Positions 508-62,889 of a DNA stretch of 64,000 nucleotides are shown in pieces. The stretch's first letter is position 1, and each line of letters begins with the position of its first letter. The stretch comes from Isurus oxyrinchus (lineage: Eukaryota): positions 5,022,001 to 5,086,000 of the forward strand of contig JANJGN010000041.1 in assembly GCA_026770705.1 (NCBI GenBank). The letters are read 5' to 3'. The position numbers and the translations under genes are program-made. The notes under the pieces are model-generated. The model did no database searches and was not told where the DNA came from. It saw only the letters and a program-made list of their open reading frames with translations.

Positions 508-1389
508 GCATTGAATGAGTTTTAAAATTGTAGTGAAGGGGATATTTCAGCTGCTCTCTGAACTTAGCCTGGATTATTGCTTAGAAACAAGTCTTTGTGC
601 AGCAGCTCAGGAGCTGCAGCATGAAGTCTATTTCTCTAATATAAATAGGTGGATTTATAGAACTGCAGCCCAAAGCTACCAATCACCACCACAGGGAAAA
701 CATCGTGAAGACAGCCAATAACAGAATGAAATTGACCGGGATAACGTGCATTAAAATGATGGATCCCTCCCACTCTCTTTCTCTGCGTCTCTGGTAATAA
801 CACCATTGCTGTGAGCCTGTATACTACTGCAGGATCTGCTGCTCACTAAAATATGCCTGACCTTTAAAACATTGAGCACTAGAATGGGGGAAAATTGGAC
901 ACCTGGCGATACAATCCAATGAAACATCTCGATTGCTGCCCATGGACGTGACTTCTGAGCATCTAATATCACAACACAAAACCAGGGGAAATTCATCTTC
1001 CAATACTCCATGGTACACCAAAAATACCAGAACACATTCTTCAAACAGCTCAACAAATACTGCACACAGAAACACATGTGCAGTTTTTTCAGTGTAAGTT
1101 TCGTTCTCAGCTTACTGCAACAAATAGCCACAAATGGGTCGAAAGTAAAATGACAGTGAACCAGACAGAACAGTCTGTGACTGCACAAAGCAGAACAGCA
1201 TGGGAGTTACACACATGCATCTAAAGAAGAAACGTATACTCGAGAGTATAACCAGTTTCAAGGTGCCTCAGTATGAGTTCGATGAAGACGACCAGCAGAT
1301 CTGCCCCTTTCAGGCCACAAAGTAGTAAGTGACACATTTCGAGAGGCCACACATTCCTTGAGAAATGATTACTATCGTCAGTACGTTAA
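508..1389 (-). pseudogene. GPR139-like: GPR139-like GPCR pseudogene, copy A (exon 2: TM1 end to TM7)
   Basis: Minus-strand acceptor (ccccctttgtcgcag), then (V)NVLTIVIISQGMCGLSKCVTYYFVA..ADLLVVFIELILRH..VCNSHAVLLCAVTDCSVWFTV..FTFDPFVAICCSKLRTK..LKNVFWYF..NFPWFC..FMLQLLSCCTKT..KFREQLKYPF. Colinear with the intact copy at 62012-62889. Frameshift/stop near 1310, stop at 1221-1223, further frameshifts near 1150 and 765. Confidence 0.93.
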
Positions 1390-2162
1390 CTGCGACAAAG
1401 GGGGACAAACAGTTCAATTATTCTTCATGCAGGAACGAGTTGCCAGCTGAACAGAATATGGTTGAATATTGCAAATGCCTTGCTGTGCCCAATTATGTCT
1501 TCAAACTCTTGCGTCCATGACACTGCTATCCACTGGAGAATGGTGTTTTCTTTAAATATTATGGAATACTGAATGAGTAATATTATCAACGATGGGATTT
1601 GCCATCAGCACAATTCGCACCTCAAAATGAGTTACGAATGTGGCAAAGATACAGTAATATTTTCTGAACACAAAGAGAAGAGACAAATGCCACTTGGAAG
1701 AATGAAGCCAACCCTCAATCAACTGGTCAGATTAAAGCTCTGCGTTTCTGTAACATCAAATGTTGCGTTAATTAAAAAAACAATCAACTTACCAGAGGAG
1801 GAGGCTGTGCAGTCAGTTACATTCTCAGTGATCTGATCCCACTGCAGGTCAGCACAAAATACCCAACTGCAAGATTTGTAAACATATTCCGACAGAAGGA
1901 CTGAGTGGTTGATCCATCCTCCTCAATTGCCCTGAATCGCCGATGCTTGACATAAGCTACTTCGATTCATATTGGTTATATCAGTGGAGATGTGAGCTCA
2001 CTGGACACAGCAAAAGCCCCAGCGCTGGCTGCATCTCTACCACAGCATTGAGGACTTGTGCCCCAGAATTAGCCGCAGCTCCATCCAAGCTGCTGCAGGG
2101 CAAACAGATGAGAGGCACCTGCTGGGAGAAATGGGCAACTGCCCTGTAATGTCCTGTACAAA

Positions 2163-2571
2163 GACACACGGACACACAAACATATGCACATGCACAAGCG
2201 CACACAAACACACACGCACACGCACACACACACTCCCTTCCCAACATACACACACACTCAAACAGACAGATGCACGCAAACACACACAAATACACACTCA
2301 CACACAGAAACTCGCCACCACACACACTCACACACATTAACAGAAAAACACACACACACACACACGTAGGCACACACACACACACACACAGATACACACG
2401 CAAAGAACGGAAGAATGGGATTGATCCCGTTCATCAGCAATGTGTTGTAATGTGTGACTAACACACACACACAAACGCACAAACACACACTCACACTCAC
2501 CCAAACCCCCTACACACGCACACGCACACTCACATATACACAAACAGACACGCACACACACACTCACATGT
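2163..2571. repeat. Imperfect (CA)n microsatellite running into an assembly gap (N 2572-2753)
   Basis: Seen directly in the sequence. Confidence 0.97.
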
Positions 2572-3029
2572 NNNNNNNNNNNNNNNNNNNNNNNNNNNNN
2601 NNNNNNNNNNNNNNNNNNNNNNNNNNNNNNNNNNNNNNNNNNNNNNNNNNNNNNNNNNNNNNNNNNNNNNNNNNNNNNNNNNNNNNNNNNNNNNNNNNNN
2701 NNNNNNNNNNNNNNNNNNNNNNNNNNNNNNNNNNNNNNNNNNNNNNNNNNNNNTGATCTCAGTCATCAACAATGTGATGGAATGTGTATTTGGCCGGGAA
2801 AGCAGGCGCCAATTGCGCAGTTGAAACCTGGGCACCGAATCTCACTCTGTATTCAGCTAAGATCAGTGGCTGGCAGGCGTCATTGCAGCCATGGCCTTAA
2901 CAGGGCAGAAACAATCAATTCAAGAAAAATGAATGGGAGTGACTGCGCATGACTTTAGGCCGCATTTGACACTATGTGGGCCGGCAGTCCGGAGAAAGGG
3001 AAGTGCTTTACGTTGTTTGAGGCTAAGTA

Positions 3030-3520
3030 ACTGCTCCTGGAGTCCCTCCACTTAGTGCCATAGTCTCAGACATCTTCAACTGCTCCAGCAATGGATTCCC
3101 CTTAATCATAAGGACAGGACTATCGTTGTTCACTGAGCATTGTACATTGCACAGCTCTATTCCTCACTCCTGGAAAACTGAAGTGGAACGTGTGCTCCCA
3201 CAGCACTGCACACGCAAAATTCAGGCTAATTCTGGTCAGTTTCGACAACATTTGCAAGACAAAATTGGCAGGCAACGCCTATCAGTAGCATACGATGATT
3301 ATATGATGTTGAGTGCAGACAGTTAAGGAGGTGTAAGAGTAATGCAGCGAATGGTAGCTTTTGGAATATTTACTAGATACAGAGTCTTACAAGGAACAAC
3401 ATTAACAGTGAAGAGAGGCGCCATTCAATGACAGGGACACCAATAAAATAACATCTGTCTGATAGAAACAATGCTGGGTGCAGAGACTCACCAGCAACTG
3501 CAAGAGCACCGAGCGATGGA
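3030..3520 (+). mobile_element. Decayed LINE (CR1/L2 group) reverse transcriptase fragment
   Basis: Degenerate GVP..S..(G)P.IF.C..N..P.II......LF.(D/E).C motif, resembling the RT GVPQGSVLGP...FADD region. Many mutations. Confidence 0.6.
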
Positions 3521-3727
3521 TAGTAAATTTCTTGAACCACATAGAGGAACATTTCAATCCTCACATCCAGGGAATAACACGGGTGCATTCACTGCCTCTC
3601 TGTGGAGCTCCTGGCCTTGGATAGACGCGGTGCTGTTGTTCACACTGACTGTCTGGAATAACAGTTTGGATTGGTTTTCCCGATTAATATCATTGGAATT
3701 CCTTTGGTGGCACAGTGAGTGTCTTTC

Positions 3728-6900: not shown

Positions 6901-7206
6901 TTCAGTTGAGCTTTCACCAAGATTGACAAATATATTGTCTCAGTTTCTTACTTTTGTAAATTCTGATTCGGTTTATCAATACAAAATATGATTTTTAATG
7001 TTAATATTCTAAAAGGCTTGCGATGCCTTAATTCCTCCCGATATTTTTCATAAACTCCTCCAACATTTGCCCGATTTTCTGCTTAACACTATTCTCTTTA
7101 CAATATTCCGTCCGTCAGAAAACCTCTTACTTCCCAGCCTGACCAGCTTACTGTTCCAATTTCGTGTTGTGCAAGTGCAATTGGACTGAACGGGTTAGAA
7201 GAGCCT

Positions 7207-7290
7207 GTTTGCTCAGTGGTTGTAATTAACGTCACTCTCCATGATGCTAAATATCTCACTGGGGGTCTTCCCAATGTTGTTAATAAGGCA
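7207..7290 (+). promoter_or_regulatory. Conserved upstream block of GPR139-like copy B
   Basis: Aligns by eye with 58537-58620 (tttg.tcagt..tgtaattaac.tca.tctcc..gat.ctaa...tcac.gg.gg). Confidence 0.55.
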
Positions 7291-7378
7291 GTCGCTACAT
7301 TCCGTTCTCTCATATTGTCAGCGGGGACATCAGCTCCGTGAGGAACAAGAACCCGCGGTTATACGACAGGGAGAGAGG

Positions 7379-7641
7379 ATATCAGAATCTGAGAAGAATA
7401 TATTTGAATGTTCCAACAATGGATCTGATTCTGAGAAAAAATGATTGGAATGTTACAACAATGGATCGGGATCTGAGGACAATAGATCGGAATGTTACAA
7501 CAATGAGTAGGAGTATTTTGGAGGCGCTTTATGAACTTTATAATTGTTATGATTGGATGTGAGTGGAAAGCCGGATCTATCGGGCACTCCATGTTATTCA
7601 GGCGGGTTATTATCCCATCCTCGTTATTATTGGCATCACAG
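7379..7641 (+). pseudogene. GPR139-like: GPR139-like copy B, exon 1
   Basis: About three 14-aa repeats (YQNLRRIYLNVPT, MDLILRKNDWNVTT, MDRDLRTIDRNVTT), then ..DWM*VESRIYRALHVIQAGYYPILVIIGIT and a phase-1 donor G|gtaagt at 7642. In-frame TGA at 7560-7562. Confidence 0.9.
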
Positions 7642-7829: not shown

Positions 7830-8266
7830 TCTCTTGTCTTCCACTATATCGGAGACATTGCGGTCTATTATGGCATGAACAATAGTTCCAATACTGCACT
7901 GAATGCAACAAAATATTGAAAAATTTCAGCGCCTTGTGGCAAACTGATACTTGTTATTTGCAAGTAATCAGGTTGTTTATTGGGAATGGTTTCATTTCCT
8001 GTGGGCCATGCGTCTGAGTCATACACATGCCGTACTGCTTTATGCAGCCACTGGCCTTTGTCTGTGATTCTGTGACTTTCACATTTGATCGGTTTGTGGC
8101 CATGTCTTTCCTGAAACTGAAAAGTAAATATTGCACCGTGAAATTGGCTCTGAGAAGAATGACTGTGCTAAGCTTTTTAAAGAATATTTTCTGGTATTTC
8201 ATGTTACCAGATTCTTGTATGCTGATGAGCAATCCATGATTTTGTTTTAGAATATTAAAACTTCAG
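7830..8266 (+). pseudogene. GPR139-like: GPR139-like copy B, exon 2 5' part (TM1-ECL2)
   Basis: LYRRHCGL..EWFHFLWAMRLSHTHAVLLYAATG..VTFTFDRFVAMSFLKLKSKYC..LSFLKNIFWYFML..NP*FC. Frameshifted; 5' boundary uncertain. Confidence 0.85.
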
Positions 8267-11200
8267 ACATAGAGTAATCGAGTCAAATTGGTCTGCAGCA
8301 CAGAAAAGTCGGCCCATCGAGACTGCGCCGGTCAGATAAGTACCTAACTATTCTAATCCCATTTTGCAGCAACAGGTCCATAGCTTTGTGTGCCTGGGCT
8401 TCACAAGTGCAAATCCAAATATTTCTGAAATGATATGAAGTTTTCTGCCCCGAAGACCCTTTTTGACAGTGAGTTCCAGATGCCCAGCACCCTCTGGGTG
8501 AAATAATTCTTCCTCACATTCCCTCTAAACCTCCTGCCCCATACATTAAATCTGTGACCTCTGATTATCGGACACTCCACCAACGGGAAAAGTTCCATCC
8601 CGTCTACCCTACCTATGCCTCTCATATTTTTATACACCTCAATATTGTCCCCTCTCAATCTATTCTGCTCCAGCGAAACTAACCCCAGCATAACCAATCT
8701 CTCCTGATATCTAAACATTTCCAGCTCAGGCAACATGCTGGTAAATCTTCTCTGCGTCTGATCCAAACACATCCTTCCTATAATGCAGATTCCAGAATGC
8801 ACGCAATACACTAGATGTGGCCTAACCAGCGTTTAATACAGTTCAGCAAAACCTTCCTGCTCTTATATTCTATGCCTCCTCTAATAAAAGCAGATATCCC
8901 ATATTTTCTTAATCACCTTATCTACCTGCAATACTACATTAAGGGACCGCTGGACATGAACACCATGATTCACCTGATCCGCGGTACTTCCCAGGATCCT
9001 AACATTCATCATATTCCCGTGTCTTGCTTGTCCTGCCCAAATGCATCACCTCACCCTTATCTGGATTAAATTACATTTGAGAATGATCAGTCCATCTAAT
9101 CAGCCTGTCTCTATATCCCTGAAATCTGAGGCTATCCTTACTATTTACCACCCCACCAATTTCCGTGCTTTCCGCGAACATACTGATCAACCCCCCTTTC
9201 AATCTAATCTAAATAGTTTATGTATTCCAGAAACATCACGTGATCCAAAGCCGACCCATGTGGAACCCCACTGGACACATCTGGCATCCAGTCATAAGAA
9301 ACCCCAATAGACAATCACCATGTGCTTCCTGCTACTCAGCCAATTCTGGGCCCAATGCGCCAAATTGCCTTGGATCCCACGGGCTCTTACCTTCGTTATT
9401 AGTCTCCTGACCAAATCAAAAGCCGTGTTGAAGTCCAAGGTGACTGCATCAAATGCATTGCCATAAATTAGATATCTGATCACCTCTTCGTAAAATACAA
9501 TCAAATTAGTCAGGCATTATATCCCCTTAACCAACCCAAGCTGATGGTCCTTGATTTCCCCTGCCTCTCCTAGTGCAGATAAACTATCGGCCTCAGAATT
9601 ACTTCCAATGATTTACCCACTGATGTTTGACTGACTGGTCTCTACTTCCCACTAAATCACTTCCTCCTTTCTTGAATAACGGTGCCACGTTGGCTCCTCT
9701 GGCAACTTTCCTGTGGTTAGAGACGTGTTGAAAATTATTTCCAGCGCCCCTGTTGTCTCCTCGCTTGCTTCACTCAACAGCCTGGGATCAGCTTCATCGG
9801 GTCCTGGAGATTCATATTATTTTAAGCCTGTCAGACCGCTTAGAACCTCTTACCTATGGTTGCTATTTTTTCTTAATTATCTCACAGCCCATTTGCATAA
9901 TTACTATAAGCCCTCTCAATTGCCAGCACCAATATAATTCATTCATTTAGAATATGACCTGTGTCTTCCGGATCCACAAACAATTTTCCACCTTTCTCCT
10001 TAATGGGCTCCATTCTTTCCCTAGTTATCCTCTTACTCTTACTCAAATTGTAAAATAACATTGTATTTTTCTTTATTTTTCCTGCCAATGATTTTTCATG
10101 CCATCTTTTTGCTCTCCTAATTTCCTTATTAAGTTGTCCCCTTGACACTCTATTCTCTTAAAGGGCTTCCACTGTTTTGGGCTCTCGTTAACTGCCATCA
10201 GCCTCTATTTTTCTCCTTATCCAATCCTGTCTATCCCTCGAAATCCAGGTGTCCCTGGACTTATTGGTCCTGCCCTTTATTGTTATTGCTAAAATTTGGT
10301 CCTGCGCTCTCTATATTTCCATCTTGAATGAGTCACACAGCTTCGAAGCAGTTCCCAGCCCACTCAGGGAAAATCATACCTGATCTTATTGAAATTGGCC
10401 TTCCTTCAATTTTGAACTCTGATTTCTGGCACTCCCTTGTCCTTTTCCATAACAACATTAATCTAATACAGTTATGATCAATAAGCACAAAACGCTCCCC
10501 CAATGATACCTCTGCCACATGCCCGGCTTCATTCCCTAAAATTAAGTCCAGGACCGCCCCTATTTTGTAGGACGTTCGACGTACTGGTTTAAAAAGATAT
10601 CCTGGTTGCAGTGTAAGAATTGATCTCCCTCTAAACGTACCATACTATGGCTAATCCAGTTAATGTTGGGGAAATTGAAATCTCCAACTATTACTACCCT
10701 GTTATTTTTACTGAGCTCTAAGATTTGCCTACATATCTTCTCTTCCATTTCTCTCTGAATGTTTGGCGACCTGCGGTACAATCGCAGAAATGTGATTCCT
10801 CCTGCTTTTTTGTCTTTTTTTTCAGTTCTATCCATATGGCTTCTTTTGAAGAGCCTTCTAGGATGTCATCCCTCTTTACTACTGTCAGTGATTCCTTGAC
10901 CAATATTGTGAAACCACTCCTCTTTTACCTCCTTCCTTGTCTCCCCTGAAGACCCAAAACGCTGGGATTTTGAGCTACCAATCGTGCCCCTCCCTCAGCC
11001 ATGTCTCTGCGGCAGCAAGGATATCATACTTCCATCGTTCAACTTATGCCCTCAAATCTGCCTTATTTGTCATACCCCTTGCATTAAAATAAATGCCATC
11101 CAACCTTGCCAAATTCGCTTCTGCCTTAACTGGCCTATATGTTCTCTGCCTTCAAGCATCATTAGCTCTCTCTTCTAATTTAGGATGTGCAAATGCCCCT

Positions 11201-12478
11201 GCTGAGCAGGCACTCAGGATCCCATCCCCCTGCCAAGTTAGTTCAAACCCTCACCATCAACATCAGCAAACCTCGCAAAAGGATGTTGGTCCCATTGCAC
11301 ATCAGGTACTGCCCATCTGCATTGTACATTTCCTGCTACCCACATAAATCGTCTCAATATGCTTGAAATAGAATGTCTTCTCTCCTTCACCATTTATCCA
11401 GCCACGAGTTCAGCTGGACAGATCTCCAACGTCAATACTCACCAGTGCATGCCAGTGGAAGAAGTTCAGTGATCACTAAATTTGACGTCCTGTTTTTTAG
11501 GCTGCTTCCTGGATCCCAAAATTCTGTCTGTAGGAACTCATCTGTCTTTGCAGCGATGTCGTTGGTACAAGTATGTACCACAATCTCCCTCTGTTTGCCC
11601 TTCCACTTTAGAATGCCCTTCAGTGTCATCCTTCATCCTGGCACCAGGGAAGCAACATACCATCCTGGAGTCACTACAATGGCCTAAGAGACGGCTCTCT
11701 GTTCGCATTATTATGGACCCTCCAGCAACACTGATAATTCGCCTCTTTTTCCTTCCCTGTTGTGCAGCTGAGCCACTCAGTGCCATGAGCGTGGCTGCAC
11801 TCCCCTGTCGAACCATCACTCTCACCACTTTCCAACACAGAAATATGGTTCTCGAGTGAGATGTGCACTCGGGATTTCCTGACTACCTGCCTGACACATC
11901 TCTTCAGACTGCTGGTTAGCAATCCATCTTTGTCGGCTTTGGGGTCACCATGCCAAAAACCGTTCCAGCCACCAAACTCTTAGCCTTGCCAGTGCGCTTC
12001 AGCGCCTCCAGCTGCCGGTTCAGCTCTGACACTCGGAGCTCCTTTCGCTTTTGTTGATGGCAATGCCTGCAAACGTGGTTGGTCAGAGAGTAAGGAGCGT
12101 CTAAGACTTCTCAAATGTTCAACGCAGTACAGAACATTGGACTGAGTTGCCCTGCCATGTCTCTAGCTTGAAAAAACAGCCGTTATTTACTTTAAGTTAA
12201 ATAGAGTAAAAAAGGAACCTGATGTTATTTATGTAGTTTAAGTAAATAAATCTCTTACCTTTCCTTAGCTTAACCTGGGGAAAACACTTCCCCGTGACTC
12301 ACCATACAGCTCTCACCTTTGTACTGTCATGACTTTTTCAAGCATCCTCACACTCGCACTGGTTCTGATCTCTCCATCGCTCCCTCACACGTTTTTGATG
12401 TCAATATTCTTCTTCTCAAAAATATCTGCAAGCTACTCTTTCTAGACAGTTTCTCCGTGATGCTGACTGCAGGGCACT
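8267..12478 (-). mobile_element. Near full-length CR1 LINE (5'UTR, ORF1 zinc finger/esterase, ORF2 endonuclease-RT), degenerate
   Basis: ORF1 from ATG at 12158: MAGQLSPMFC..NHVCRHCHQ..ELRVSELNRQLEAL, then DSRMVCCFPGAR and IVVHTCTNDI. ORF2: EAIWIELK, NRVVIVGDFNFPNINW, LDFNTAFD, RLRGDNIEVYK..FTQRVLGIWNSL. 3' tail near 8270. Confidence 0.93.
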
Positions 12479-12480
12479 GT

Positions 12481-12533
12481 TTCAAAAACCATCTCCTATT
12501 TGGACAGCTGTCGAGCTCCTACATCACATTCTT
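12481..12533 (+). pseudogene. GPR139-like: GPR139-like copy B, residual exon-2 island between two insertions
   Basis: QKPSPIWTAVELLHHIL corresponds to SPVWVTIEFTHHIL in the intact copy. Confidence 0.8.
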
Positions 12534-12875
12534 GTTTTATCCACTCAACGTTGGCATCGCTGGCAAGGCTGGCATTTATTGCCCAGCCCGAATTGCCCTT
12601 GTTCAGAGGGTAGTGAAGAGTCAACCAAATTACTGTAGTTCTGGAGGAACATGTTGCCAAGCAGATTCCCTTCCCTAAAGGGCATTAGTGAACCAGGTGG
12701 TATATTGCAACGATCGACAATGGTTTCATCGTCATCATTGTGCTTTTTATTCCAGATTTTTATTGAATTCAAATTCTACCATCTGCCACGGTGGGTTTCG
12801 AAAACCTGTTCCTGGAGCATGTTGCTGGGTTTCAGGTCCATGGACAATCCCTCTACACCATCGCCCCACTGAATT
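12534..12875 (-). mobile_element. SINE-like interspersed repeat
   Basis: ggcatcgctggcaaggctggcatttattgccc...aaattctaccatctgccacggtggg. Related copies at ~23855-24110, ~25020-25090 and, in the opposite orientation, ~44460-44830. Confidence 0.75.
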
Positions 12876-13280
12876 TGCACCCTATGTGTCACAATTGTCC
12901 CTATTGTATTGCTCAATGTTATTACCATCACAAACATTTTAGTGAACAGCCGAGCCCGCAGGAGACTCCAGGCTCACAGCAGTGGGGAGAGCCCCAGAGA
13001 CACAGAGGCGGAGAGTCAGATGAAATCCATAATTTTACTGGTTATTATCACAGCCAATTTCAACCTGTTGTGTGCAATGTTAATATTGTTTTCTTTGTGG
13101 AGACGGATATCGTGCTCTGGGAAATTGCACGTTGATCTAGATTATATTGTGATGGAATTTGGCTTCACACTACAGATACCGAGTTGCTGTACAAACATTG
13201 GGATTTACGCCGTGACCGAGGATAAGTTCAGGGAGCAGTTGAAGAATGTACAGAGATATAAATTTACTCCAGTTGTTTAA
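12876..13280 (+). pseudogene. GPR139-like: GPR139-like copy B, exon 2 3' part (TM5-TM7)
   Basis: LLNVITITNILVNSRARRRLQAHSSGESPRDTEAESQMKSIILL..EFGFTLQIPSCCTNIGIYAVTEDKFREQLKNV. Confidence 0.92.
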
Positions 13281-14140: not shown

Positions 14141-16017
14141 ATCAACATCTGAGTGTCCTCTTCCAATACCCCACATTTACCAACCGCACCCCATCTCCCG
14201 CATGCCGAATTTAACACACAACATTGAGGTGTGTCCAATAAATTGCTCTCACTGTCGAAAGCTTGGATGCGTGAAGGTAAACTCAGGGTCACAGATTGAC
14301 GGAATTCCCATGGTGCAGAAGGAGGCCATTCTGCCCATCGTGACCAGGCTGGCTTTCCAAAAGCGCTATCTTGTTCAGTGCCATTTTCCTGGCGTATCCC
14401 CATAACCCTACTCATTGTTTCTATTCAAATTTTCATCCAACGTACCTTTGATTGTCTTGATTGTACATGCCTCCACCACTATTCCAGACAGTGCACTCCA
14501 GCCCAGAACAATCTGCCATATGAAAGACGCTTTCTTTCCTCTCAGGCCAAATTTAACTGGCCGGATTAGAAAGGTAAGAGGCACAAAGCAGCAGGTACAA
14601 ACAATGGATGACTTCTCCTTGGCTTTTTTTTTGTAGAAATGTTGCTTACCATCATTTCACTCTGGACCGATGGTCGAGAAGTTTTTTTTTTAAGGAATTA
14701 GATCTAAATTAGTTCAAGCATAATCCATGAAGAAGGCAGGTCTGTAGGATCTATGTATTGCTTCATATCAGTGAAATATTTTCCATTTAAGGAAACATAA
14801 ACTAAAGGTCTAGTTGAGAAGACACCTGAAGATCCCCCTCGGAGATGTGTGCATTTTTGTGAGAATCTCTGGTTTCTATTGATCTGCTTGTTTTTTTGAG
14901 ATTGTTTAGCTGCAACTGGGACAGGTGCCTTCGATAGTTCACTGTGAGAAATTAACCAGTTGATGACACTTATTTATGCCTGCACAGTGAGCAGCGAAAA
15001 CTCTAAGCCCAAGATCCATCACTTGGAATGCAAGTAAGGTTAATCTCAGACTGGATTGCATGAGGAAAAATAATCTAGAACGTTTTCTGGTTTGAAAATA
15101 AAAAAAAAATCGACAGCGGTGGTCATTGAGCCTACTGACAAAATATAGCCAATCGTGGATTAATATGGAAATATTGAAGAGAAAAGAGCGCAATGGAATG
15201 AGTCGCCTAAATATATGTTAATTGAAAGTCTTAAGGTTGAGGAAGGTTGGAACAGAGAAAATATAAAGCAAACGACATAGCACTGGCTTTCTATGTGATC
15301 CCTGAAGAAGTACATGGCTTCAAACGTTTTTTTAAGTACTAAGATAATTGTCTGGGGAAAGGAGCAAATTTTAGCGTGTAGCAAATCTGTTTATAAACTG
15401 TAGCATTCAGGCAATTGTGCTTGAGTTGCTGAACCATCTGTTATTATTTCCCAACAAAAACGATAATTGGCACGTGGTCATTCTTAGTCCGTATAGTTAA
15501 CAAAAAACACACTTTCATCATCAACTCTACCTGCTACTTCATTAACTTATGGCAATCGAGTTTGTCAGAGGCATTTACTTTCATTATTGTGTCTTCTGGC
15601 TACTACTTAGAAACCCATGTTTTCTAATCAACAAGCTCATTTTACCCTAAATTATTGAGTCTCTCTTATGACAGCTCTTTGAATTATTGGCAGATACAAG
15701 TTTATTCTTCTGCCCTACGATAAACAGGAAGCAATATTGACAACAGTTTGGGAATAGTCCGATATGCAAGGAGGATTGAAGGATAGTGGTTAGTGTGTCC
15801 ATGATTTCCGCCATTCCTTCCCTCGTAAGACCTCAGACATCCACATGAAAGCTGTAAAAAAAGCTGCTTCATTAGGGTAAAATAGAAAGGTGTTACGTTA
15901 ATATTATATATTATGGCATAATAATAAAAGTCGCCATGGACCTTAATTATGTCAATAGAGCTAACACCTCTTCAATTAAAATGCTAATCCTTCCAATAAG
16001 CCATCTCATCCTATAAC

Positions 16018-16711
16018 ATGGATAATCAGTGTGGCACTGTCAGGGGGCAGCAGCTCCAATGCGAAGGAGAATATATATTAAAAACGGAGGACAATACATT
16101 GGACTATTATAATGATCTGTCCGAATCAAGAGCTGCAGCTTGGAATCTATCCATAATGGATCAGGATCTGAGAACAATAGATTGGAATGTAACAACAATG
16201 GATCAGAAACTGAGAACAATGAATTGGAATGTTACAAAAATAGATCAGAATCTGAGAACAATGGATTGGAATATTCCAAAACTGAATCAGAATCTGAGAA
16301 AAATATTTTGGAATATGACAAAAATGGATCAGAATCTGAGAAAGATAGCCAGGAATATTACAAAAATGGATCAGCAACTGAGATCAATACATTGGAATAT
16401 TACAAAAATGGTTTAGAATCTGAGAACAATACTTTGGGATATTTCAAAAATGGATCAGAATCTGAGAACAATACTTTGGAATTTTACAAACATGGATCAG
16501 AATCTGAGAACAGTAGGTTGGAAAGTTTGAACAATGGATTAGGACCTGAAAACAGTCGACTGGCATCATACAAGAGGCAGGAGGTTACCCTGGTATGTTC
16601 ATTATATGTTGACTATTTATTGTGGAATCACATTCAAATATCGGGTCGCAATGCTACTTCAGGTTATTTAATGTTCTTGCTATCCAATGCTCGCTTTTGT
16701 TGGTGTGCATC
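16018..16711 (+). pseudogene. GPR139-like: GPR139-like copy C, exon 1 with expanded N-terminal repeat; no exon 2 found
   Basis: Ten 14-aa repeats, then ..YRVAMLLQVI*CSCYPMLAFVGVH and a phase-1 donor C|gtaagt at 16712. Four in-frame stops, the first at 16414-16416. Confidence 0.88.
16156..16575 (+). repeat. 42-bp coding tandem repeat x10 (consensus ATGGATCAGAATCTGAGAACAATAGATTGGAATGTTACAAAA)
   Basis: Units start exactly 42 bp apart: 16156, 16198, 16240, 16282, 16324, 16366, 16408, 16450, 16492, 16534. Confidence 0.97.
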
Positions 16712-21200: not shown

Positions 21201-22600
21201 GCCAATTTATTAAATAAATTCCCTGCCTATTTGCACATTGTGTTGCTCTCACTAGTTTATTAATTACATTCCCTCCCTATTTACACACTGGGTTGCTCTC
21301 CCTAATTTATTAATTACATTCCCTCCCTATTGGCTCACTGCGTTGCTCTCGCTAGTTTACTAATTAGATTCCCTACCTATTTGCACAATGGGTTGCTCTC
21401 GATAGTTTATTAATTAAAGTTGCTGCCTATTTGTACACTGAGTTGCACTTCCTAGTTAATTAATTCCATGCTCTGTTTATGTTGACACTGGCTTGCTTTC
21501 GTTAGCTTATTAATTACATTAGCTGCTTATTTGTACATTACGTTGCTTTCGCTATTTTATTAATTGCATTCCCTGTCTGTTTGCTAACGATTTTCCTCTA
21601 GGTAGTTTATTAATTGCACTTGTTGCCTATTTGCATCATAGGTGGCTCTCACTAGTATATTCATTACATTCCCTACCTATTTGCACACGGGTTGGCTCTC
21701 CCTTGCTTGCTAATTACATTCCCTCCCTATTTGAAAACTGGCTTGCTCTCTGTTGTTCATTAATTTCATTAACTTTCTATTTGCACACTGATTTGCTCTG
21801 GTTCGTTTCGCAGTTCTATTCATTCACGATTTGTGCACAGGTTTGCTCTATCTACCTCGACTTTATTTGTTGACCACTTACATCCTTTATGTGCACACTA
21901 GGTTGCTCTTTGCATCTCATTTTCTAATGTATTATTTGCAAAACACTAATTGCACACTTGTTTACTCTCACTCTCTAAATTATAATTGCATATCACCTCA
22001 ATTTTTACACTGGCTCTCTCTCTCGCTCTCTTTTTCTGTAATTAATTAATTACATTCCTCCTCTATTTGGTCACTAGGTTGACCTCACTCTTTCTCTCTA
22101 ATTCATTAATTGAGTTGATTCGATTTTTCCACCCTGCGAGGCTCTCTCTATAATTCAGGAATTGTATTCCTTCTCTATTTTCATACAGTGTTGTTCTCTC
22201 TCTCACTTCCCAATTTATGAATTACATTTTTGTCCACTATTTGAACACTGGGTTGTTCTCTCTCACTCTAATTTATTAATTGCATTCTACCTTTATTTGC
22301 ACACTGCGTTGCTCTCCCTCTCCAACTCAAATAAATTAATTACATTCCCCTTCATTTGAACACTGAGTTGCATCTCATTCTCTAATTTATTAATTGCATT
22401 CCTCCTCCATTTGCACTATGCGTTTCTCCCGCTAGTTTATTAGTTACATTCCCTAACTATTTAGACACTGGGTTGCTCTCGCTAGGTCATGATTTACATT
22501 CCCTGCCTATTTACAGAGTGTTTGCTCTCGCTAGTTTATTAATGAAATTCCCTACGTGATTGTGCACTGCGTTGGTCCCGCAAGTGTTTCAACTATATCC
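18280..22600. repeat. 50-bp satellite array (ctagtttattaattacattccctgcctatttgcacactgggttgctctcg), roughly 75-80 copies, interrupted at ~18960-19290
   Basis: 50-bp period checked (cactgggttg at 20401 and 20451). Homogeneous core ~19400-21700, with CT-richer divergent flanks. Confidence 0.96.
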
Positions 22601-33974: not shown

Positions 33975-34325
33975 TTAAACAGCGCAAAATCCCACTCAGG
34001 TATCACCAATCTGGCGAAAGTATTATAACAAGCACCAATTTTATGCACTGATCAACACTCTGTTCATTGTATTTTAATGAGCAATAAATCCCACTCATAT
34101 ATTACCACTACACTGAATGTACTTTAACTAGCACTAAATCCCATTCATTTATCAATACCCCGCTGAATGTATTTTAACCAGCACTAAATCCCATTCAATT
34201 ATCACCACTCTGCTGAATGTATTGTAGCCAGATCAAAATCCACTCACACTGCTGCATGTATTAACCAGCTGTAAATTCAAATCACTTATCAACAATTTCT
34301 GAATGTATTTTAACCAACAATAAAT
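33975..34325. repeat. 50-bp minisatellite x~7 (aaatcccattcatttatcaccactctgctgaatgtattttaaccagcact)
   Basis: aatccca recurs at 34087, 34137 and 34187. Confidence 0.9.
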
Positions 34326-34539
34326 AAAATCTATGGTCGGGGAATCTTAAAAAAATTGTATATAATAAAATTAGGGAATTAGTTTACTAAACATATCCTA
34401 AATATATGTCAACATGACGATTTTATGCTGATGATTTAAAGTTGCTGCACAAACGCGTAACTTTATGTGGTTAGTTAATCCAAAATCAGACAGCAGTTAA
34501 AGATATTGCTGAAGGATTGGTTACACATATCAGTCAGAG

Positions 34540-46890: not shown

Positions 46891-49800
46891 GCCTTGTATT
46901 TTCTAACTAACTTGCAGCCAAAGCAGCCTGTCCTGCTGCCACAGTGCTGTGCATAATTGGATGTGACTGTTGCTGCTCTTTTAGATGCTTCCGTTCACTG
47001 AATTTATGAGAAGGAAAAAGGAACAAAGACACTTCTCTTAGGTTCTGGGTTGTTATGTCAGGTGTGTCATGACTGGAGGTAATGAAGCGAATAATAATTA
47101 ATCTGTGTGGATATTATTTGTATCTTCGTTTGTCTACGTGTGTGTGTGTGTGTGTGTGCGTTTTAGTGCAAGTTTATGTTTGTGTGTATGTTTNNNNNNN
47201 NNNNNNNNNNNNNNNNNNNNNNNNNNNNNNNNNNNNNNNNNNNNNNNNNNNNNNNNNNNNNNNNNNNNNNNNNNNNNNNNNNNNNNNNNNNNNNNNNNNN
47301 NNNNNNNNNNNNNNNNNNNNNNNNNNNCTTCCCTGAACTTCAATTTGGTAGAGAAGCCTCAGCACTATGAAAACGGAATAGTTTAATCAGTCATATTAAA
47401 GGAAAGCGCAATGTAGAGTACATGTTTCAAGTTATAAGTTTTGAACTGAACATTCTGGCCAAAAATCAAAACCTGAGCATGTTTATGAGCACGTGGGACT
47501 TTTAACCTACATACAAATTCACCCACGGGGAAATGGAGTGTATTTTAATGTTTCACAGTTTAACTTGGAACTTTGATACAGATGATTCTCAGTTGAATTT
47601 ATCCTGGTCAGAAACCTCTTTAAACCGTTGAAGAACTCAGGTTTGGCTCCTGACAAAGTTGCCAAAGGAGGAAAATAATTTTTATGGACATTTGTAAACA
47701 TTTGGCATTAATTTAAAATGCTTCAAGTTTCTGTGCAGAAATAATATTTTAAAATGTACCTGTAGAAGATTGAAAATGTCAGTTCGGCCTTACAATAAAA
47801 AGATAAGCCTGAAGCCTGGAATAATTTTGACAAAAATCCAATTTGGACAGTTCAAATAGAACTATGTTAAATGTTAAAAAGAACTATGAAAATTCAAATT
47901 GCAGACTCTTTCTTTCAAATCAGGTAAAAGCAGCGAACAGCGATACATTAATCCTGTCTTCAAGGAGAAAACGCTTATACACGAGAGATATCAGGTGAGA
48001 AATGCATTACAAAAAGCTGAAAGGCTTCAAAATAATAGAAATTGGATATATAGTTTGGGCACAACTGAAGAAAAGCTAATGGAAAACTTTAATAAAGCAA
48101 GTTTCACTTTTGATTGGGGAAGATTTTTTCGAAATCCGATGAAGTGAAGCAATTGTGTGCAAAGTTATTTCCGCTCCCACGACCAAACCCCACAACCACC
48201 AAACGCGCAGTGGAGTTAATCAGGTTGTGCTTATTGCTGCTTCCGTTTTACTTCATGATATAACCTTCGGATTTCCAGATTTATATTGGCACTCATGAGA
48301 TTTCAAGTTTCCAAATTCACAGACGTGAGTGAACATATCAACCCATTGAACTGTGGGTCATAGGCATGATGGATGGCTTGCGTTTGTGAACAAAGAGTTT
48401 TGTGAATTAAAGATAGAGCAACAAGTCATATTGGTCCAGCGAACTGGCCTCACCAGATCAGGCTGCTTGTTGCTATTAGTTATCTTTCGAGACAGAGTGC
48501 TAGAGAACGGGACTTCTGAGCAAACACACCGAACAATGAAAATGGGATTTCTCAACATCAGCTTTGTAAACCAGCAAGCCTGAAAACAATTGTTTCTGAA
48601 AGCGAAATTCATAAAGGAAACTGGACATCAGCTTCTATTCACCCATTTCAAAGGGAAATGTACCTGACGTTTAAGGGGATAAACAAATTCCAACTTTCAA
48701 AAGAAGAATGCTAATCGGAAACAATTCAGGCGGCTCCTTGAAAAAAACATGTTTTTTTTTGGAAGAAATAAATTGAACACTAAATTCAACATGGAGCAAC
48801 ATTAAAAATCGGACACAGCTAAAAGGTTACTTCTGTCAAACCAAAATTATACCTGAAGAAAGAACAAACAGGGCAAAACATGCTAATAACTGGAGTCAAG
48901 CGTTTGATTCCAATTTCAAAGATATTATCAAAACTTTTCCTTTTCAGCGCATTCGACCATGACTCAGTGCTAATGGCGCTCTAATTTGAAAACAAAATGC
49001 AGAACAATAATCACAAAATCGGTCAAACCTTCTCTGTCAGGCTTCAAGGCCATGCTGCCACCAGTGTATTACTCAGGGGTGCAAAATAAACTGGAAGTTT
49101 TGGCAGATCAAAAATGACTTGCGGTCGCCCAGGACACAGTTTGAAGAACATCACATGCTATCATCATGCCATTACAAGCCAACAAGCTATTACTAAATGA
49201 TATTCAGAGGTCTGTTAAATCCTGCCATCTTGTTATTGCATTGAGAATACTGCCTTTTCCGGTACGTAAGCATTAACCAAGCCCTCCAGTTTCTTGCCCT
49301 TCTTAATGTGAAAAACATCAAACTCCATCACTTTCAGCAGTTCAGCCTCTGCTTCAGTCTTTCCCTCCATCCCTGCCTCCACATTCTCTTGTTGTTCTGA
49401 AACGTGACCTTTCTGTTTCGAAGGCTTGTGAGCTGACCTCGAGGTACACCTGCCACGTTCCCGGTCTCGATCTTATGACCTTGAGCGGCCATGTCACCTG
49501 GCTCCCCTCACTTTGCCCTACAGTATTTCCCCAGGCCTCATGAACGAGGTGAGGTATTCAGTATTGCAACTGTATGAGGATCCGAGGAAAGGATTGAGGG
49601 TAAGATCTAGAAGTAGGGTAAAAAGGCAAACATCAGTTGTGAATTGGCAGAACCCACCTCCGGTGTCGTTCAATGTAACACATCAATTTCGTGTCCATGT
49701 ACGTTCTACTGAATGTAAAGAGTAGATTAATGGAATAACGTTAGATTGTTCTCTTTGATATAAGTTTCTCTTTGCCTACAAGCTTTTTATGAGAATTGAA

Positions 49801-51833: not shown

Positions 51834-51865
<32 letters not shown>

Positions 51866-51880
51866 TTTATTTTTTCATTT
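51805..51880. repeat. (TTTC)n microsatellite
   Basis: Seen directly in the sequence. Confidence 0.9.
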
Positions 51881-58350: not shown

Positions 58351-58536
58351 GAAAAACTTATAACCCTCCAGTCCTCGGATATCACTCCAAGGTGCACTTA
58401 CATGTCATGGTCAGTCAAACCCCTACTGGCAGCCTTCCATCCATTAGCGACCCACATACATCCGATAGAGGGCAGGTAATGTTCTATTCTGTTGTGATAA
58501 AAAAAATGTTGGATAGCAAGACGTTAACTGAACCAC

Positions 58537-58620
58537 TTTGTTCAGTCCCTGTAATTAACTTCAATCTCCCTGGATCCTAATTGTGTCACAGGAGGGTTCC
58601 ACTCTGCTATTTATATGGGG
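58537..58620 (+). promoter_or_regulatory. Putative proximal promoter of GPR139-like copy D (TAATTA site and TATTTATA box)
   Basis: Block conserved with 7207-7290. TATTTATA at ~58608-58615, about 140 bp upstream of the ATG. Confidence 0.55.
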
Positions 58621-58751
58621 CTCATTTCAATGTGCCTTCCCCTAATGTCAGAGGGACAGTCGCATTCAGCACTCACAAGGATCAACGACTCCATAGAGAG
58701 GGGGAGAAACAATATCAGAACCTGAGAATAATAGATTGGAATTTCACAACA

Positions 58752-58926
58752 ATGAATCAGAATCTTAGAAGAAAGTCTTGGAATGTTACAAAAATGGACA
58801 GGAGTTTATCCTCGGGGCTTTATTACCTTTCTCCAGATCGGATATCATTAGCTGATAGGATCCTGGGTGTAATTTCGTTAATCCAAGTGGGTTACTTTCC
58901 CATCCTGGCTCTTTTCGGTGTCACCG
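58752..58926 (+). CDS. GPR139-like: GPR139-like GPCR copy D, coding exon 1
   Basis: MNQNLRRKSWNVTKMDRSLSSGLYYLSPDRISLADRILGVISLIQVGYFPILALFGVT, then a phase-1 donor G|gtaaga at 58927. No stops. Confidence 0.88.
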
Positions 58927-58999
58927 GTAAGAACCTATATGCAACAATCTGTTATTTGAACCAGATTGACTGCATTGCCTTTACTGTCTTTTACATTTC

Positions 59000-59460
59000 A
59001 GGAAGATGGAAGTCATTTGCTACTGTTCCCATTTTAATGACCGTTCCCTATCCAGTCGCTCCACCCACGTACCACGCCACTATCTAAGTCTGATCCATAG
59101 TGTCGTCGACCCCGAGGCCCCATTTGGCCCTGAGCTGATTTCTGAGCCCATACCCTTTCCATCCATAAGCCTGTCTTCGACAAGATCTGCAGCCTCACCC
59201 ACGATCCTCACAGCAGTAGCACATCACCGGAATGCTCCCTCAGCTGTGCATTTGTCAAAGTCAGACTCGGCTTTTAAAATGTTAATCTGGCCATACAATT
59301 GCAGTTATAAACCTTCTTGAAACATACCATGTACAAAACTCTGCTTTCTGTAAACTAACCCATGCCAAATCTCATTCCACCATCATCCCTGCGCTCACGG
59401 GCCAACATTGCTTCCAGGTCTTTCAGCTAGTCAATTTCAAAATTCCAATCCTGTCACCTG
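59000..59460 (+). mobile_element. Old L2-type LINE RT C-terminal fragment in the intron of copy D
   Basis: GKMEVICYCSHF..FGPELISEP..NSAFCKLTHAKSHSTIIPALTGQHCFQV..NFKIPIL, resembling L2 GKTEAIVFG..FDPELSF..NSAARILTRTKSRSPITPVLADLHWLPV..FKILIL. Confidence 0.7.
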
Positions 59461-59979
59461 ATTACTCTTTAATCTCATTTCTCCAATCACTCCCATGCCC
59501 AGAAACTCAGACATGGTGCCCCTTGTTGTGCAGGGGTTTTCAGCATGTTTGACACTTGCCTTTTAAACACTGTCTGTACCTGCCCACCGAAAGCCTGTGT
59601 TAATCACTCTCAGCTAAATGCTTGTTAAACAACACGAGGCACCCTCTCCAATTTAATTGAAACGGGCCGGACATCTGTCAGCTGAAGGGCTTTTGACTGA
59701 CTTCTGTTATTGCAGGGTCCATTGAGGTGCTGTAGATGGTTTTCATGGTGCTGTGCTGTGAGGGGCTGCATACATTGAGAGAGGAAAGAGGATTTATAGG
59801 CCATACCTTGGAAGAGTTTTTGGGCCTGTAATTACAGTGCATCTGGACCTCTACCATGACTAGCGAAAGAAGTGGAGTGAAGAGGGAGCGGAACGCCTGT
59901 TAACATTTGGGTGTCGGGGGGTGGGGGTTGCTTTGGGGGGCGGGTGAGGGGGGTTGCACTGCCCTAAGCACCGCGGGAT

Positions 59980-60930
59980 TTTCAGGGACACTTTAGAAAC
60001 CTATACTTAAAACATGGGCAGAGACAGATATAACTCAGCCACGACACTAGGGTGTTACAGAGCCATCTCATCTCCTTTAACAACACTTGGGGCCGCACAC
60101 CAGGTTGAGAGAGCTGCAGTCTTTGGACACGAATTTCACAAGATCAGTGAAACTTCTATGGATTCGGAAGATTCCAGGCAGGGGAATAGTTGTTGTTATA
60201 TTCATTATCTCCCAGTATTTTGCCTAACTATGTATTCACTAGCCGACAGAGAACATCTATGCTGGGTGCCACGTTTATACCGGTGCTCCCTCAACAGGGA
60301 GAAGCATAATGATTGGTCTCATGGCCTCCTAGGGTAGAGGGATTCCCGATGGCATGAGTGATTCCGCTGTGGCCAATTAGAATTGACAGAGAAAAGGCTC
60401 TGAAAGAACTATCACTGTATTGACGTGCATTTGATGTATGTTTATGCACAGTACATCATGTTGGTGAATAGCCACTATCCTGACTAGAGCCGCAATCCCT
60501 TCATTATGAAGCACTCGGACATTTACAGCATCTTTGATGCTCCATAGAGAACCACAAAGTGGATATTCGGAGTTGAAGGCTGCCCCGTCGGTACATGGAT
60601 CAAAAAACTTTACTTTGCCATTCTGTAACTCCAACCAAGCAGGTGAACATAGCATGTCAATGCCAAAAGCGATGGAGTTGCATAGAGTATTGTGGATCAG
60701 CCTGCCAGAGTGGCAAAGAAACGCTTCTGATTCCTGCGCCGTTTGGAGTGAACCCTCCAGTACACACTGGAGCAGCTGATCATTTTCATAGTGTTCTGCT
60801 TGATCCTTCATATCATCACCATCATAAGGATACAGGCAATGTCACCAAGAATCCAGAGGGCAACGAAGGTGAAGAGGAGATTGTGTTAAGATATATCGTG
60901 GATGCTTTCGCCTTTGACAGGTTGTCTAGA
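59980..60930 (+). mobile_element. Harbinger/PIF transposase (HARBI1-like, DDE_Tnp_4) relic
   Basis: NFYGFGRFQAG..KNYHCIDVHLM..IMLVNSHYP..PFIMKHS..WIFGVEGCPVGTWI..KRF..LQYTLEQLIIFIVFCLILH, resembling NFYASGSFQ..KGFHSLNVQLV..NARYPGSSHDAFIL..WLLGDKGYP..LQYSP..VVCCMLHN. Confidence 0.8.
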
Positions 60931-62011
60931 TGTGCCCGCTAAGAATCCTGTTTGCACAAAACTTCCTTTTCTGAAGTTGTACTGAACGTAAATTTAAATG
61001 TTTACACAATGGAAATCCAACAGCAAGATCAAAGGACAGGGACACTGTTGCTAATAAATGAAACACTTCAAAATTAGATAAGCTAAGAGACATTTTTGAA
61101 GATTTCACGCATTAAAAGAGGCTGATAGGCTTTACATGTTGGTACATTTCTTCAATACAGAGGCTCCGCCACACTGTAGACTAAAAGCCAAATATTTACA
61201 AAATCCATTTGTCTTCAATCACGGAGGAACGAACAATTCAGTCCTGCAACGTTTTCAACCAACACATTAAGCAATTTAAGAAATGAGCTGTTCCTCTTCT
61301 ACACTCCTAATAATTTAAGTATGTGTTGCATTTCTGCAAATCATCATGCTTTGTGTGAGGGTGTATGAGTGTTTGTGTTGTACATGATCGTTATTATTTG
61401 TGTTTGTGCATTTTGTAAGAAACGGACGTTTATTCTTTCATTTGAAATGATAATTCGCAAGATAGCTCGCTTCGAAATTCTTAAAATACCATCTGTGGAG
61501 AAAAGAAACATTCTTTCTGATAACCGCTGAGCATTCCTGTCAGGAAGATATGTTGAGCAAAATATTAAATTAACCCATTTCTCTTCTTTATCCTTAATGG
61601 AATCATCACCTCTGGCGCCTCTCAATCAACTGCGTCTCCCCTCTCACTTATGGATTCCACACTCACCCATGGGTACCACCCGTAATACGCACGCTGACCT
61701 GGCACTCCGTAAGCCTCAATCACGGCTAAGTGTAACTATTATCCCCCGATTACTCCTTTACTCCCTTGTCTCTTAAATATTCCCGGTCTCCTGCAACTCT
61801 CATCTCCACTCCATTTCCACCTCCTTATTTAAACTATTCAATGTATTCTTCCTTCCATGGAATAACAGACATTTTTTATACCTTCTTTCAGGGCCGTTCA
61901 TTTCAATACACCAGAGGATGCTGTAATACATCTCCATCGCATCTCAATCATACTGGCAACTTTGGTACCAGAGTGTTAAATCATTTTACTATTTATTACC
62001 TTTCCTTGCAG

Positions 62012-62889
62012 TGAACCTATTCACGATTGTGATATTGAGGCGCCAGAGGTGCGGTCTCTCCAATTGTGTTACCCGTTACCTGGTGGCCATGGCAGTGGCT
62101 GATCTACTGGTCATTATCCTCGACCTGATACTGAGGCATATTCCAATTGTGTTTGATAAGTATTTTATTTTCCTGCAATCAGTCCCAGTGTGTAATATCC
62201 ACGCCGTCCTGCTCTATGCAGCCACTGACTGTTCTGTGTGGTTCACCGTCACTTTTACCTTGGATCGATTTGTGGCCATTTGTTGCCCGAAACTGAAAAC
62301 TAAATATTGCAATGAAAAAACGGCAGCTGTGATTCTGGGAACCGTGATTGCACTGAGCTGTTCAAAGAACATTTTCTGGTATTTTTTACTCACAGGTCAG
62401 TACTGGCTGGTAAACTTCCCCTGGTTTTGTGGTTACACAAAAGAGGTTCTGTTCTCTCCTGTCTGGGTGACAATCGAGTTCACCCATCACATTCTAACAC
62501 CTTGTGTCCCATTTGTACTGATCCTGCTCATCAATATTTTGACAGTCGAGTATATTTTAGTGACCAGCATGACCCGCAGGAGCCTTCGGTCTCATAGGAG
62601 AGGGGAGAGCCCCAGAGACCCAGAGATGGACAATCGAAAGAAATCGATCATGTTACTGTTTTATATTTCAGCCAATTTCATTGTTTTATGGGCAATGTTA
62701 ATGTTTTATTCCATATGGGTTCGAATGTATGATTTTGGCTTTAATTCACTGTATCTACATTTTTTTGTTCTGCAATTGGGTTTCATGCTGCAGCTCCTGA
62801 GTTGCTGCACAAACACTTGGATTTATGCTGTGACACAGACTAAGTTTCGGGAGCAGTTTTGGAAAATGTTGAAATATCCCTTCAATTAA
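62012..62889 (+). CDS. GPR139-like: GPR139-like GPCR copy D, coding exon 2 (spliced product 350 aa, 7TM class A)
   Basis: Acceptor tttccttgcag (AG at 62010-62011) joins exon 1 in frame (G+TG = Val; 175+878 = 1053 nt). Open 7TM frame with YLVAMAVADLLV, SVWFTVTFTLDRFVAICC, LFYISANFIVLW and MLQLLSCCTNTWIY..KFREQ, motifs shared with vertebrate GPR139/GPR142. Confidence 0.95.

Follow-up and report, generated by a model that had tools for sequence, protein, structure and literature searches.

Within 64 kb of the genome of the shark Isurus oxyrinchus (the window), four paralogous genes for G protein-coupled receptors (GPCRs) of class A, one intact and three decayed, lie in both orientations, which raises the question of what kind of receptor family they represent, from which lineage it arose and what it may sense. 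The arrangement had been described in an earlier note on this DNA, together with a phase-1 intron just before the Asn of TM1, and our analysis confirms it: a phase-1 GT donor precedes this Asn in all four copies, with acceptors visible only in A and D (Table 1). The matches are far above chance (nhmmer E-values of 1e-96, 2e-48 and 2e-26), and chance or artefact is ruled out as the source of the four copies. The conserved motifs that had been listed for the cluster are kept only in part by the dead copies (copy A reads DPFVA, TRDAE and SCCTK, and copy B has no match to CGLS), and SCCTN, which had been taken for an intracellular motif, is located in TM7 rather than in a loop.

Table 1. Positions of the receptor gene copies and their parts in the window.
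Feature	Position	Strand	Remarks
Copy A, exon 2	500..1389	-	Pseudogene: 5 frameshifting deletions, one 12-nt deletion, 3 stops
Copy A, exon 1	3492..3590 (approximate at the upper end)	-	Phase-1 GT donor at 3491; 14-aa repeat not apparent
Copy B, 5' flank	7101..7352	+	Homology to D flank
Copy B, exon 1	7381..7641	+	Three 42-bp repeats, one in-frame stop, phase-1 GT donor
Copy B, exon 2, first remaining piece	7969..8260	+	ECL1 to ECL2
Copy B, exon 2, middle piece	12486..12533	+	Top of TM5; weak alone (E=0.3), but collinear; between two insertions
Copy B, exon 2, last piece	12867..13280	+	TM5 to stop
Copy C, 5' flank	15769..16061	+	Homology to D flank
Copy C, exon 1	16112..16711	+	About 9 in-frame 42-bp repeats, 4 stops, phase-1 GT donor
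Exon 2 remnant	34401..34520	+	TM7 and helix 8; 3 stops; profile E=2.8e-8
Copy D, 5' flank	58390..58700	+	Homologous to B and C flanks (nhmmer E=1.9e-13 and 7.9e-6, and alignment)
Copy D, exon 1	58752..58926	+	Met-led repeats of 14 aa carrying N-glycosylation sequons, juxtamembrane segment, first half of TM1
Copy D, intron	58927..62011	+	GT...AG, 3085 bp, phase 1; GT donor at 58927
Copy D, exon 2	62012..62889	+	Remainder of TM1 through helix 8, and stop; frame open

Copy D, the sole intact copy, encodes 350 amino acids in two exons, and its intron interrupts the codon preceding Asn 1.50 of TM1. The protein is a class A (rhodopsin-like) GPCR with the seven-helix fold: Pfam 7tm_1 matches with an E-value of 1.2e-13 (51.6 bits against a curated cut-off of 30.5), and for the structure model (pLDDT 91.3) the top 50 Foldseek hits are class A GPCRs throughout, with GPR15 at rank 1 and GPR139 at rank 2, so that this search could not tell class A receptors apart. 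From the homology of the 5' flanks of B, C and D, we infer a putative common promoter or 5' UTR. Exon 1 of copy A also matches homologous proteins (blastp E=2e-8). In copy B, exon 2 has no match to codons 2–43 and contains three stops; two insertions, of ~4.2 kb and ~0.3 kb, break it into pieces. The exon 2 remnant at 34401–34520 is assumed, by its position only, to belong to copy C; between 16.7 and 34.7 kb, nhmmer detected no further exon 2 remnant at E<0.4. A profile scan of the window yielded no fifth copy, only weak extra matches (E>0.2) and two shifted-frame matches over D. For other genes in the window, 14 long open reading frames of the 34 listed were scanned, and the single Pfam match was to GIY-YIG.

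The gene units, each consisting of 5' flank, exon 1, intron and exon 2, duplicate and die as wholes. Synonymous divergence between the copies (dS 0.72–0.88) makes them old relatives and rules out recent local tandem duplication; the 'rapid' pseudogenisation that the earlier note had proposed is, for the same reason, not what the window shows. Judged by sequence comparison, the four copies are members of a large elasmobranch GPCR family. The search returned 1630 clusters at E<=1e-5 from 2435 candidates, which is an upper bound on the size of the family, and among the best 120 of the 1630, which were examined, 118 are named shark proteins from 10 species carrying the database label 'probable GPR139'. 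Horn shark alone contributed 55 matches, which collapse to 51 types at 97% and 44 types at 90% core identity, counts that possibly include haplotypes or several assemblies. Subfamilies are common to different shark orders, and several of the whale-shark and sevengill matches come from contigs of identical length. With its many paralogues, clustered and accompanied by pseudogenes, the family has the organization of a receptor repertoire, and the large number of copies supports the proposed lineage-specific birth-and-death evolution.

The distribution of variable and fixed sites points in the same direction. Across 116 family sequences, extracellular sites evolve 4.8 times as fast as intracellular ones; the ratio is 4.05 and 4.39 within single species (horn shark and whale shark, respectively) and 3.0–3.8 in three family subsamples of 21 sequences, compared with 0.79 (60 sequences) and 0.57 (21 sequences) in two related vertebrate receptors, designated here paralogues A and B. 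The predicted excess divergence of the extracellular loops is thus borne out, and it falls on the ligand-facing side, as in receptor repertoires. The cytoplasmic face shows strong conservation. Hypervariability in the D subfamily falls on the juxtamembrane segment of the N-terminus, on ECL1 and ECL2 and on the TM6-ECL3-TM7 rim. The deep pocket differs between old subfamilies but hardly varies within this one: its 23 positions have a relative rate of 0.32 within the D subfamily versus 1.36 across 49 subfamily representatives. D2.57, R2.61, D3.37, W5.35 and W6.48 are invariant in 115 D-subfamily sequences, and H3.28, H5.42 and R6.59 are 97–99% conserved. Positions were placed in the deep pocket or the rim by class A numbering rather than by measurement on the model; the rate of 3.29 obtained for the rim is partly post hoc because its 10 positions were picked after inspection of the entropy table. 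At the fast codons, dN/dS in three pairs of copies is 1.31, 1.76 and 1.77 versus 0.40–0.46 elsewhere, in pairs that are not independent and involve pseudogenes; the excess over 1 is not significant, with bootstrap intervals that span zero (fraction <=0 of 0.148, 0.043 and 0.069), and in two of the three pairs these codons have an elevated local pS as well. A similar rate pattern could arise if the cytoplasmic parts underwent gene conversion or if constraint on the loops were relaxed. On balance, we lean towards reading the window as a slice of an elasmobranch birth-and-death repertoire directed at diverse, probably peptide-like ligands through a common signalling face.

The ancestry of this repertoire differs from what the automatic label suggests. 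Copy D scores 36.2 bits against human GPR139, versus 100.6 bits against paralogue A of coelacanth and 93.0 bits against paralogue B of newt. Both paralogues are apparently single-copy, A being found in coelacanth, sharks, sturgeon, teleosts, amphibians and reptiles, and B in amphibians and sturgeon. In a tree of 36 rows that includes neither true GPR139 nor GPR142 and is rooted on five rows that appear invertebrate-like by eye, the family groups with paralogue B (support 93/95), paralogue A falls outside, and all three are separated from the outgroup with 100/100 support; the family is thus placed with single-copy, non-mammalian relatives of GPR139 in a tree without GPR139 itself. The outgroup protein P0256 had no PDB match at E<=1e-12, which made that comparison uninformative, and the ESM Atlas returned the family's own clusters and no match for the N-terminal repeat. 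Since two vertebrate paralogue lineages are closer, one of them with its own conserved shark orthologue, the derivation from GPR139 put forward in the earlier note is unsupported, and the shark family is probably not derived from that receptor. Its likely source is a GPR139-related yet separate vertebrate paralogue lineage, probably the orphan clade provisionally named GPR210. GPR210A/B was described as an orphan near GPR139 and GPR142, present in coelacanth, gar and fishes and without a human orthologue (Rinne et al. 2019, PMC6504862); the available parts of that article contain neither 'shark' nor 'cartilaginous' and report no expansion. Paralogues A and B match GPR210A/B by description, and they are unlike the shark family in being apparently single-copy with conserved extracellular faces.

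The same comparisons bear on the proposal that these receptors descend from GPR139 and detect free amino acids or other small odorants of that kind, which we consider improbable. Among receptors of solved structure, human GPR139 is the best match by sequence (E=4e-8 with a single sequence and 2e-40 with a profile; 5e-27 for the next family), and three of the five agonist-site positions of GPR139 (F3.33, H5.42, W6.48, R6.51, N7.39) are kept in the D subfamily, where 3.33 (Y 76%, F 23%), 5.42 (H 97%) and 6.48 (W 100%) match F109, H187 and W241. A pocket that differs between subfamilies would also be expected for classes of small ligands. Amino-acid sensing of the GPR139 type is nevertheless weakened because the other two positions are replaced throughout the subfamily: N271 (7.39), whose Ala mutant has greatly reduced responses to Trp and Phe, aligns to F in 91% of sequences, and R244 (6.51) to L or F in 96%. 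The variation within the subfamily is concentrated at the rim, presumably above the place of a single amino acid, and, as noted, closer paralogues than GPR139 exist. GPR139 likewise has two exons, and its human and zebrafish proteins are 70% identical, according to the portions available of PMC7318219. Copy D is about 21% identical to GPR139 in the structural alignment and lacks the high identity that would mark an orthologue, and GPR139 is not its closest bony-vertebrate relative; the shark family, in many copies rather than one, lacks P6.50 as well as R6.51 and N7.39, and it has Cys3.25 and the ECL2 Cys, whereas the GPR139 chain in the alignment has neither.

An equally improbable alternative is that each subfamily binds one conserved endogenous ligand in its fixed pocket and that the outer surface diversifies to escape docking pathogens, parasites or toxins. 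A fixed deep pocket beneath a hypervariable exposed surface fits escape from an external binder too, and the variable glycosylated stalk could shield the receptor, but for escape a genome would not have to retain copies by the dozen, and the pockets differ between subfamilies. Least probable is copy-number drift of a duplication-prone unit in repeat-rich shark genomes, with loops under relaxed constraint and most copies dying, which agrees with three dead copies out of four and with a dN/dS not significantly above 1 at fast codons, but not with a dN/dS of about 0.4 outside them even in pairs with pseudogenes, a pocket and cytoplasmic face near-invariant over 115 sequences, subfamilies common to different shark orders or the opposite rate pattern of the single-copy paralogues.

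In the repertoire that we favor, every member would couple to one common G protein, and the polar and aromatic deep pocket of each subfamily would anchor a shared ligand group, most likely a peptide end, with the variable rim reading the variable remainder of the ligand. An anchoring pocket combined with such a rim would enable the family to discriminate many related, fast-changing peptide-like ligands. These would not be among the cell's own hormones but be of conspecific, prey or microbial origin, and the N-terminal stalk would be built of glycosylated 14-aa repeats that vary in number. The available sections of PMC8557429 place the protostome MIP/sex-peptide, proctolin, FMRFamide and myosuppressin receptors as the sister group of deuterostome GPR139/142 and describe protostome relatives of this receptor group as responding to peptides whose C-termini are aromatic and amidated; those ligands, however, are the animal's own neuropeptides.

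The OR, TAAR, ORA/V1R, V2R and T2R repertoires of vertebrates form clusters, contain pseudogenes and have diversified ligand-facing surfaces. The shark family resembles them in all three respects but has no homology to them beyond class A membership. The mammalian FPR and MRGPR families are class A expansions from peptide receptors that serve immune and somatosensory or vomeronasal sensing; their likeness to the shark family is a functional analogy, the lineage being different. MAS1 and its relatives are reported as absent in cartilaginous fishes, for which a 'relative paucity' of GPCRs is also stated, in the parts available of PMC8455134. The six chemosensory families surveyed in catshark, totaling 65 genes of which 40 are V2R or V2R-like, do not include this family in the available portions of PMC6368271. 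In the literature searched, a scope from which most subscription journals were excluded, no published account of the family expansion was found, and GPR139 terms are absent from 12 of the 24 supplementary files of PMC8455134, which were the ones searched, and from the supplements of PMC11057056, PMC11406177 and PMC13188829.

A bolder version of the repertoire reading, which we put forward tentatively and rate as rather unlikely, is that these genes constitute an additional chemosensory family of sharks and rays, of independent neuropeptide-receptor origin, larger than all known olfactory and taste families together, sparsely expressed in nose or skin and reading peptide cues. In a catshark olfactory library, no GPCR appears among the 50 most specific genes in the available part of the report (PMC11979771), which is weak evidence either way. 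Since the outer surface evolves fast over a fixed inner face, as in receptors of smell and immunity, sharks may sense chemicals with an overlooked receptor set. At least 44 distinct horn-shark types from one subfamily alone are hidden behind one automatic name, and, be it sensory or immune, the family would represent a diversified receptor repertoire that originated independently. Attention is also drawn to two conserved orphan receptors, as yet unstudied, in fishes, amphibians and reptiles. Existing RNA-seq now makes it testable how sharks, with so few odorant receptors, tell chemicals apart, and the chemosensory reading, if true, would overturn the view of a small, V2R-dominated repertoire and of few GPCRs in cartilaginous fishes.

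The cluster of GPR139-like class A receptor genes is real, and the feature is larger than the window alone suggests. Searches with tblastn, nhmmer and a family profile located four related genes (copies A–D) and bore out the earlier note's description of one intact and three broken paralogues with a common phase-1 intron, the donor being in phase 1 in all four. The intact gene, copy D, encodes 350 aa with a Pfam 7tm_1 match and a confidently predicted seven-helix receptor fold (pLDDT 91.3). In copy B, exon 1 carries a stop and exon 2 is shortened and split by two insertions; exon 1 of copy C contains four stops, and a TM7–helix 8 remnant 18 kb beyond it is assumed to belong to the same gene. 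Synonymous distances of 0.72–0.88 between A, B and D make these copies old neighbours; on the speed of gene death the window carries no information, and it does not show the "rapid" pseudogenisation proposed earlier. A 5' flank of ~250–300 bp is homologous between B, C and D, and the duplication therefore took in whole gene units. The flanks of D and B have in common the word TAATTAAC, a candidate site that resembles those bound by homeodomains.

Features of the window and their coordinates
Feature	Position	Strand	Remark
Copy D exon 1	58752-58926	+	intact gene
Copy D intron	3085 bp, between exons 58752-58926 and 62012-62889	+	GT-AG, phase 1
Copy D exon 2	62012-62889	+	intact gene
Copy A exon 1	end at 3492	-	
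Copy A exon 2	1389-500	-	five frameshifts, three stops
5' flanks	58390-58700 (D), 7101-7352 (B), 15769-16061 (C)		homologous
42-bp repeats, beginning of exon 1	7381-7505 (B), 16140-16523 (C), 58714-58796 (D)		N-glycosylation sequons
50-bp minisatellite array	19393-21799		48.5 copies; degenerate to about 22550 and 18416
Second, different 50-bp minisatellite array	33971-34231		5.2 copies
GIY-YIG fragment	38100-38570		Pfam E=7e-5
Second GIY-YIG copy	32292-32757		80% identity to first
Insertions dividing copy B exon 2	8260-12480, 12545-12865		
Assembly gaps (runs of N)	2572-2753 (within copy A intron), 47194-47327		

Exon 1 also contains in-frame 42-bp (14-aa) repeats, absent from the earlier note: about three in B, nine in C and two in D, mostly Met-led and with N-x-T sequons. 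By a simple pattern, at least one unit is present in 53 of the best 120 homologues listed, and the unit had no match in the ESM Atlas; the repeat reads as a putative glycosylated stalk of variable length. Both minisatellite arrays sit between the two pieces assigned to copy C. The two GIY-YIG fragments are presumably a Penelope-type retroelement, and an ORF in a copy B insertion (8401-8832, minus strand), which has no Pfam match, resembles a CR1-type LINE 3' end.

With copy D exon 2 as query, 1630 of 2435 candidate clusters passed E<=1e-5; this number is an upper bound, since non-shark relatives may be among them. Named shark proteins make up 118 of the best 120 matches, almost all of them annotated as "probable G-protein coupled receptor 139" (horn shark 55, sevengill 24, whale shark 13, zebra shark 7, small-spotted catshark 6, others 13). 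The 55 horn-shark proteins collapse to 51 types when grouped at 97% core identity and to 44 when grouped at 90%, counts possibly inflated by haplotypes or several assemblies. Since the top identity among these 120 is 73%, D itself is absent from the matches. A 50%-identity library holds 110 representatives at E<=1e-30, fragments counted. Because one skate protein nests inside the family, and D's own branch, its subfamily (support 100/100), includes sevengill, sawshark and galeomorph members, the expansion would predate the shark–skate split.

The database name reflects human GPR139 being the best solved-structure match to D, yet at only 36.2 bits, versus 100.6 for a coelacanth and 93.0 for a newt protein, which argues against the derivation from GPR139 that was proposed earlier. 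These two proteins belong to separate orphan receptor genes of vertebrates, paralogues A and B (distinct from copies A and B), which score 70.4 and 53.2 bits, respectively, against GPR139, whereas GPR139 itself shows 70% identity between human and zebrafish (PMC7318219). Paralogue A, an orphan GPCR that is conserved and apparently present as a single copy in sharks, fishes, amphibians and reptiles, occurs in coelacanth, three sharks, sturgeon, teleosts, amphibians, turtles, lizards and snakes; the named rows of the best 120 of 145 matches include neither birds nor mammals. In zebra shark and one tree frog it is annotated as an isoform of TMEM183A, which suggests that it adjoins or overlaps that gene and that TMEM183A could serve as a synteny marker. 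Paralogue B was seen only in amphibians and sturgeon in a word-limited search, whose 25 matches included 20 clusters from amphibians and one from sturgeon; it retains W6.48, P6.50, a basic 6.51 and N7.39, as in GPR139. The family and paralogue B group together in a 36-row maximum-likelihood tree (support 93/95), with paralogue A outside, and a 69-row quick tree is concordant (support 87), both trees being without true GPR139; paralogue B appears to be the nearest bony-vertebrate relative of the shark family. The GPR139 chain in the alignment lacks Cys3.25 and the ECL2 Cys, whereas the family and both paralogues have them. Paralogues A and B probably correspond to GPR210A/B, orphan receptors of coelacanth, gar and fishes that Rinne et al., working without shark genomes, named as a clade close to GPR139/142 (accessible portion of PMC6504862); the literature searched contains no further relevant paper on "GPR210", the other three of four matches being unrelated.

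Site rates were estimated from D and 115 of the 120 matches (excluding two unnamed models and three that look chimeric), 60 named matches chosen by hand from the best 120 for paralogue A and 21 of 25 for paralogue B, with regions assigned from the secondary structure of the predicted model. For the shark subfamily the extracellular/intracellular rate ratio reaches 4.8 (p=1e-7), versus 0.79 and 0.57 in paralogues A and B, and it remains at 3.0–4.4 when single species or subsamples of 21 are taken. The divergent extracellular loops noticed earlier are therefore real, and their variability is not a general property of such receptors. The 45 fastest sites include 11 in ECL2, nine in the N-terminal juxtamembrane segment, six in ECL3, five in outer TM6 and four in ECL1. 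A finer pattern, which is new, is that the deep pocket is as conserved in the subfamily as in single-copy genes: 23 classical positions have a rate of 0.32, versus 0.39 and 0.35, and D2.57, R2.61, H3.28, D3.37, H5.42 and W6.48 (numbering placed by anchor residues) are conserved at 97–100%. Positions were labelled deep or rim by class A convention, those of the rim being picked after inspecting alignment variability. Over 49 subfamily representatives the deep pocket diversifies (relative rate 1.36; ratio 1.78). The dN/dS comparison proposed earlier, made on pairs within the window, gave 1.31, 1.76 and 1.77 at the protein family's fast codons (27, 22 and 22 comparable codons) against 0.40–0.46 at the remaining codons; the bootstrap intervals of this excess span zero and local synonymous divergence at fast codons is also higher in two pairs. 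The values above 1 are only suggestive of selection.

Agonist action at GPR139 requires F109, H187, W241 and N271, and R244 makes a polar contact in a model (PMC5430874). In the profile alignment, D's subfamily retains Y/F, H and W at the first three positions, but has F in place of N271 in 91% of members and L or F in place of R244 in 96%, whereas paralogue B has N and K there. These replacements weaken the earlier suggestion of amino-acid sensing: paralogue B is a likelier sensor of free amino acids in the manner of GPR139 than the expanded family is. Protostome members of the wider receptor group are activated by aromatic amidated peptides (PMC8557429). A rim that varies around an unchanging anchor would fit peptide ligands that share one end and vary in the rest.

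No account of the elasmobranch expansion was found in the literature searched, mostly outside subscription journals: in the portions available, "GPR" is absent from the main text of the catshark sensory atlas (PMC11979771) and from the zebra-shark genome paper (PMC10620051), and sharks go unmentioned in a review of GPR139 (PMC12208981). As RefSeq annotations are public, the copy number may already have caught the attention of specialists. Elasmobranchs possess an apparently undescribed GPCR repertoire that stems from a lineage sister to GPR139 and bears a clear signature of diversification in its sequences, from whose pattern we infer a role in sensing. Expression of the family in nasal or skin sensory tissue seems less likely than not.
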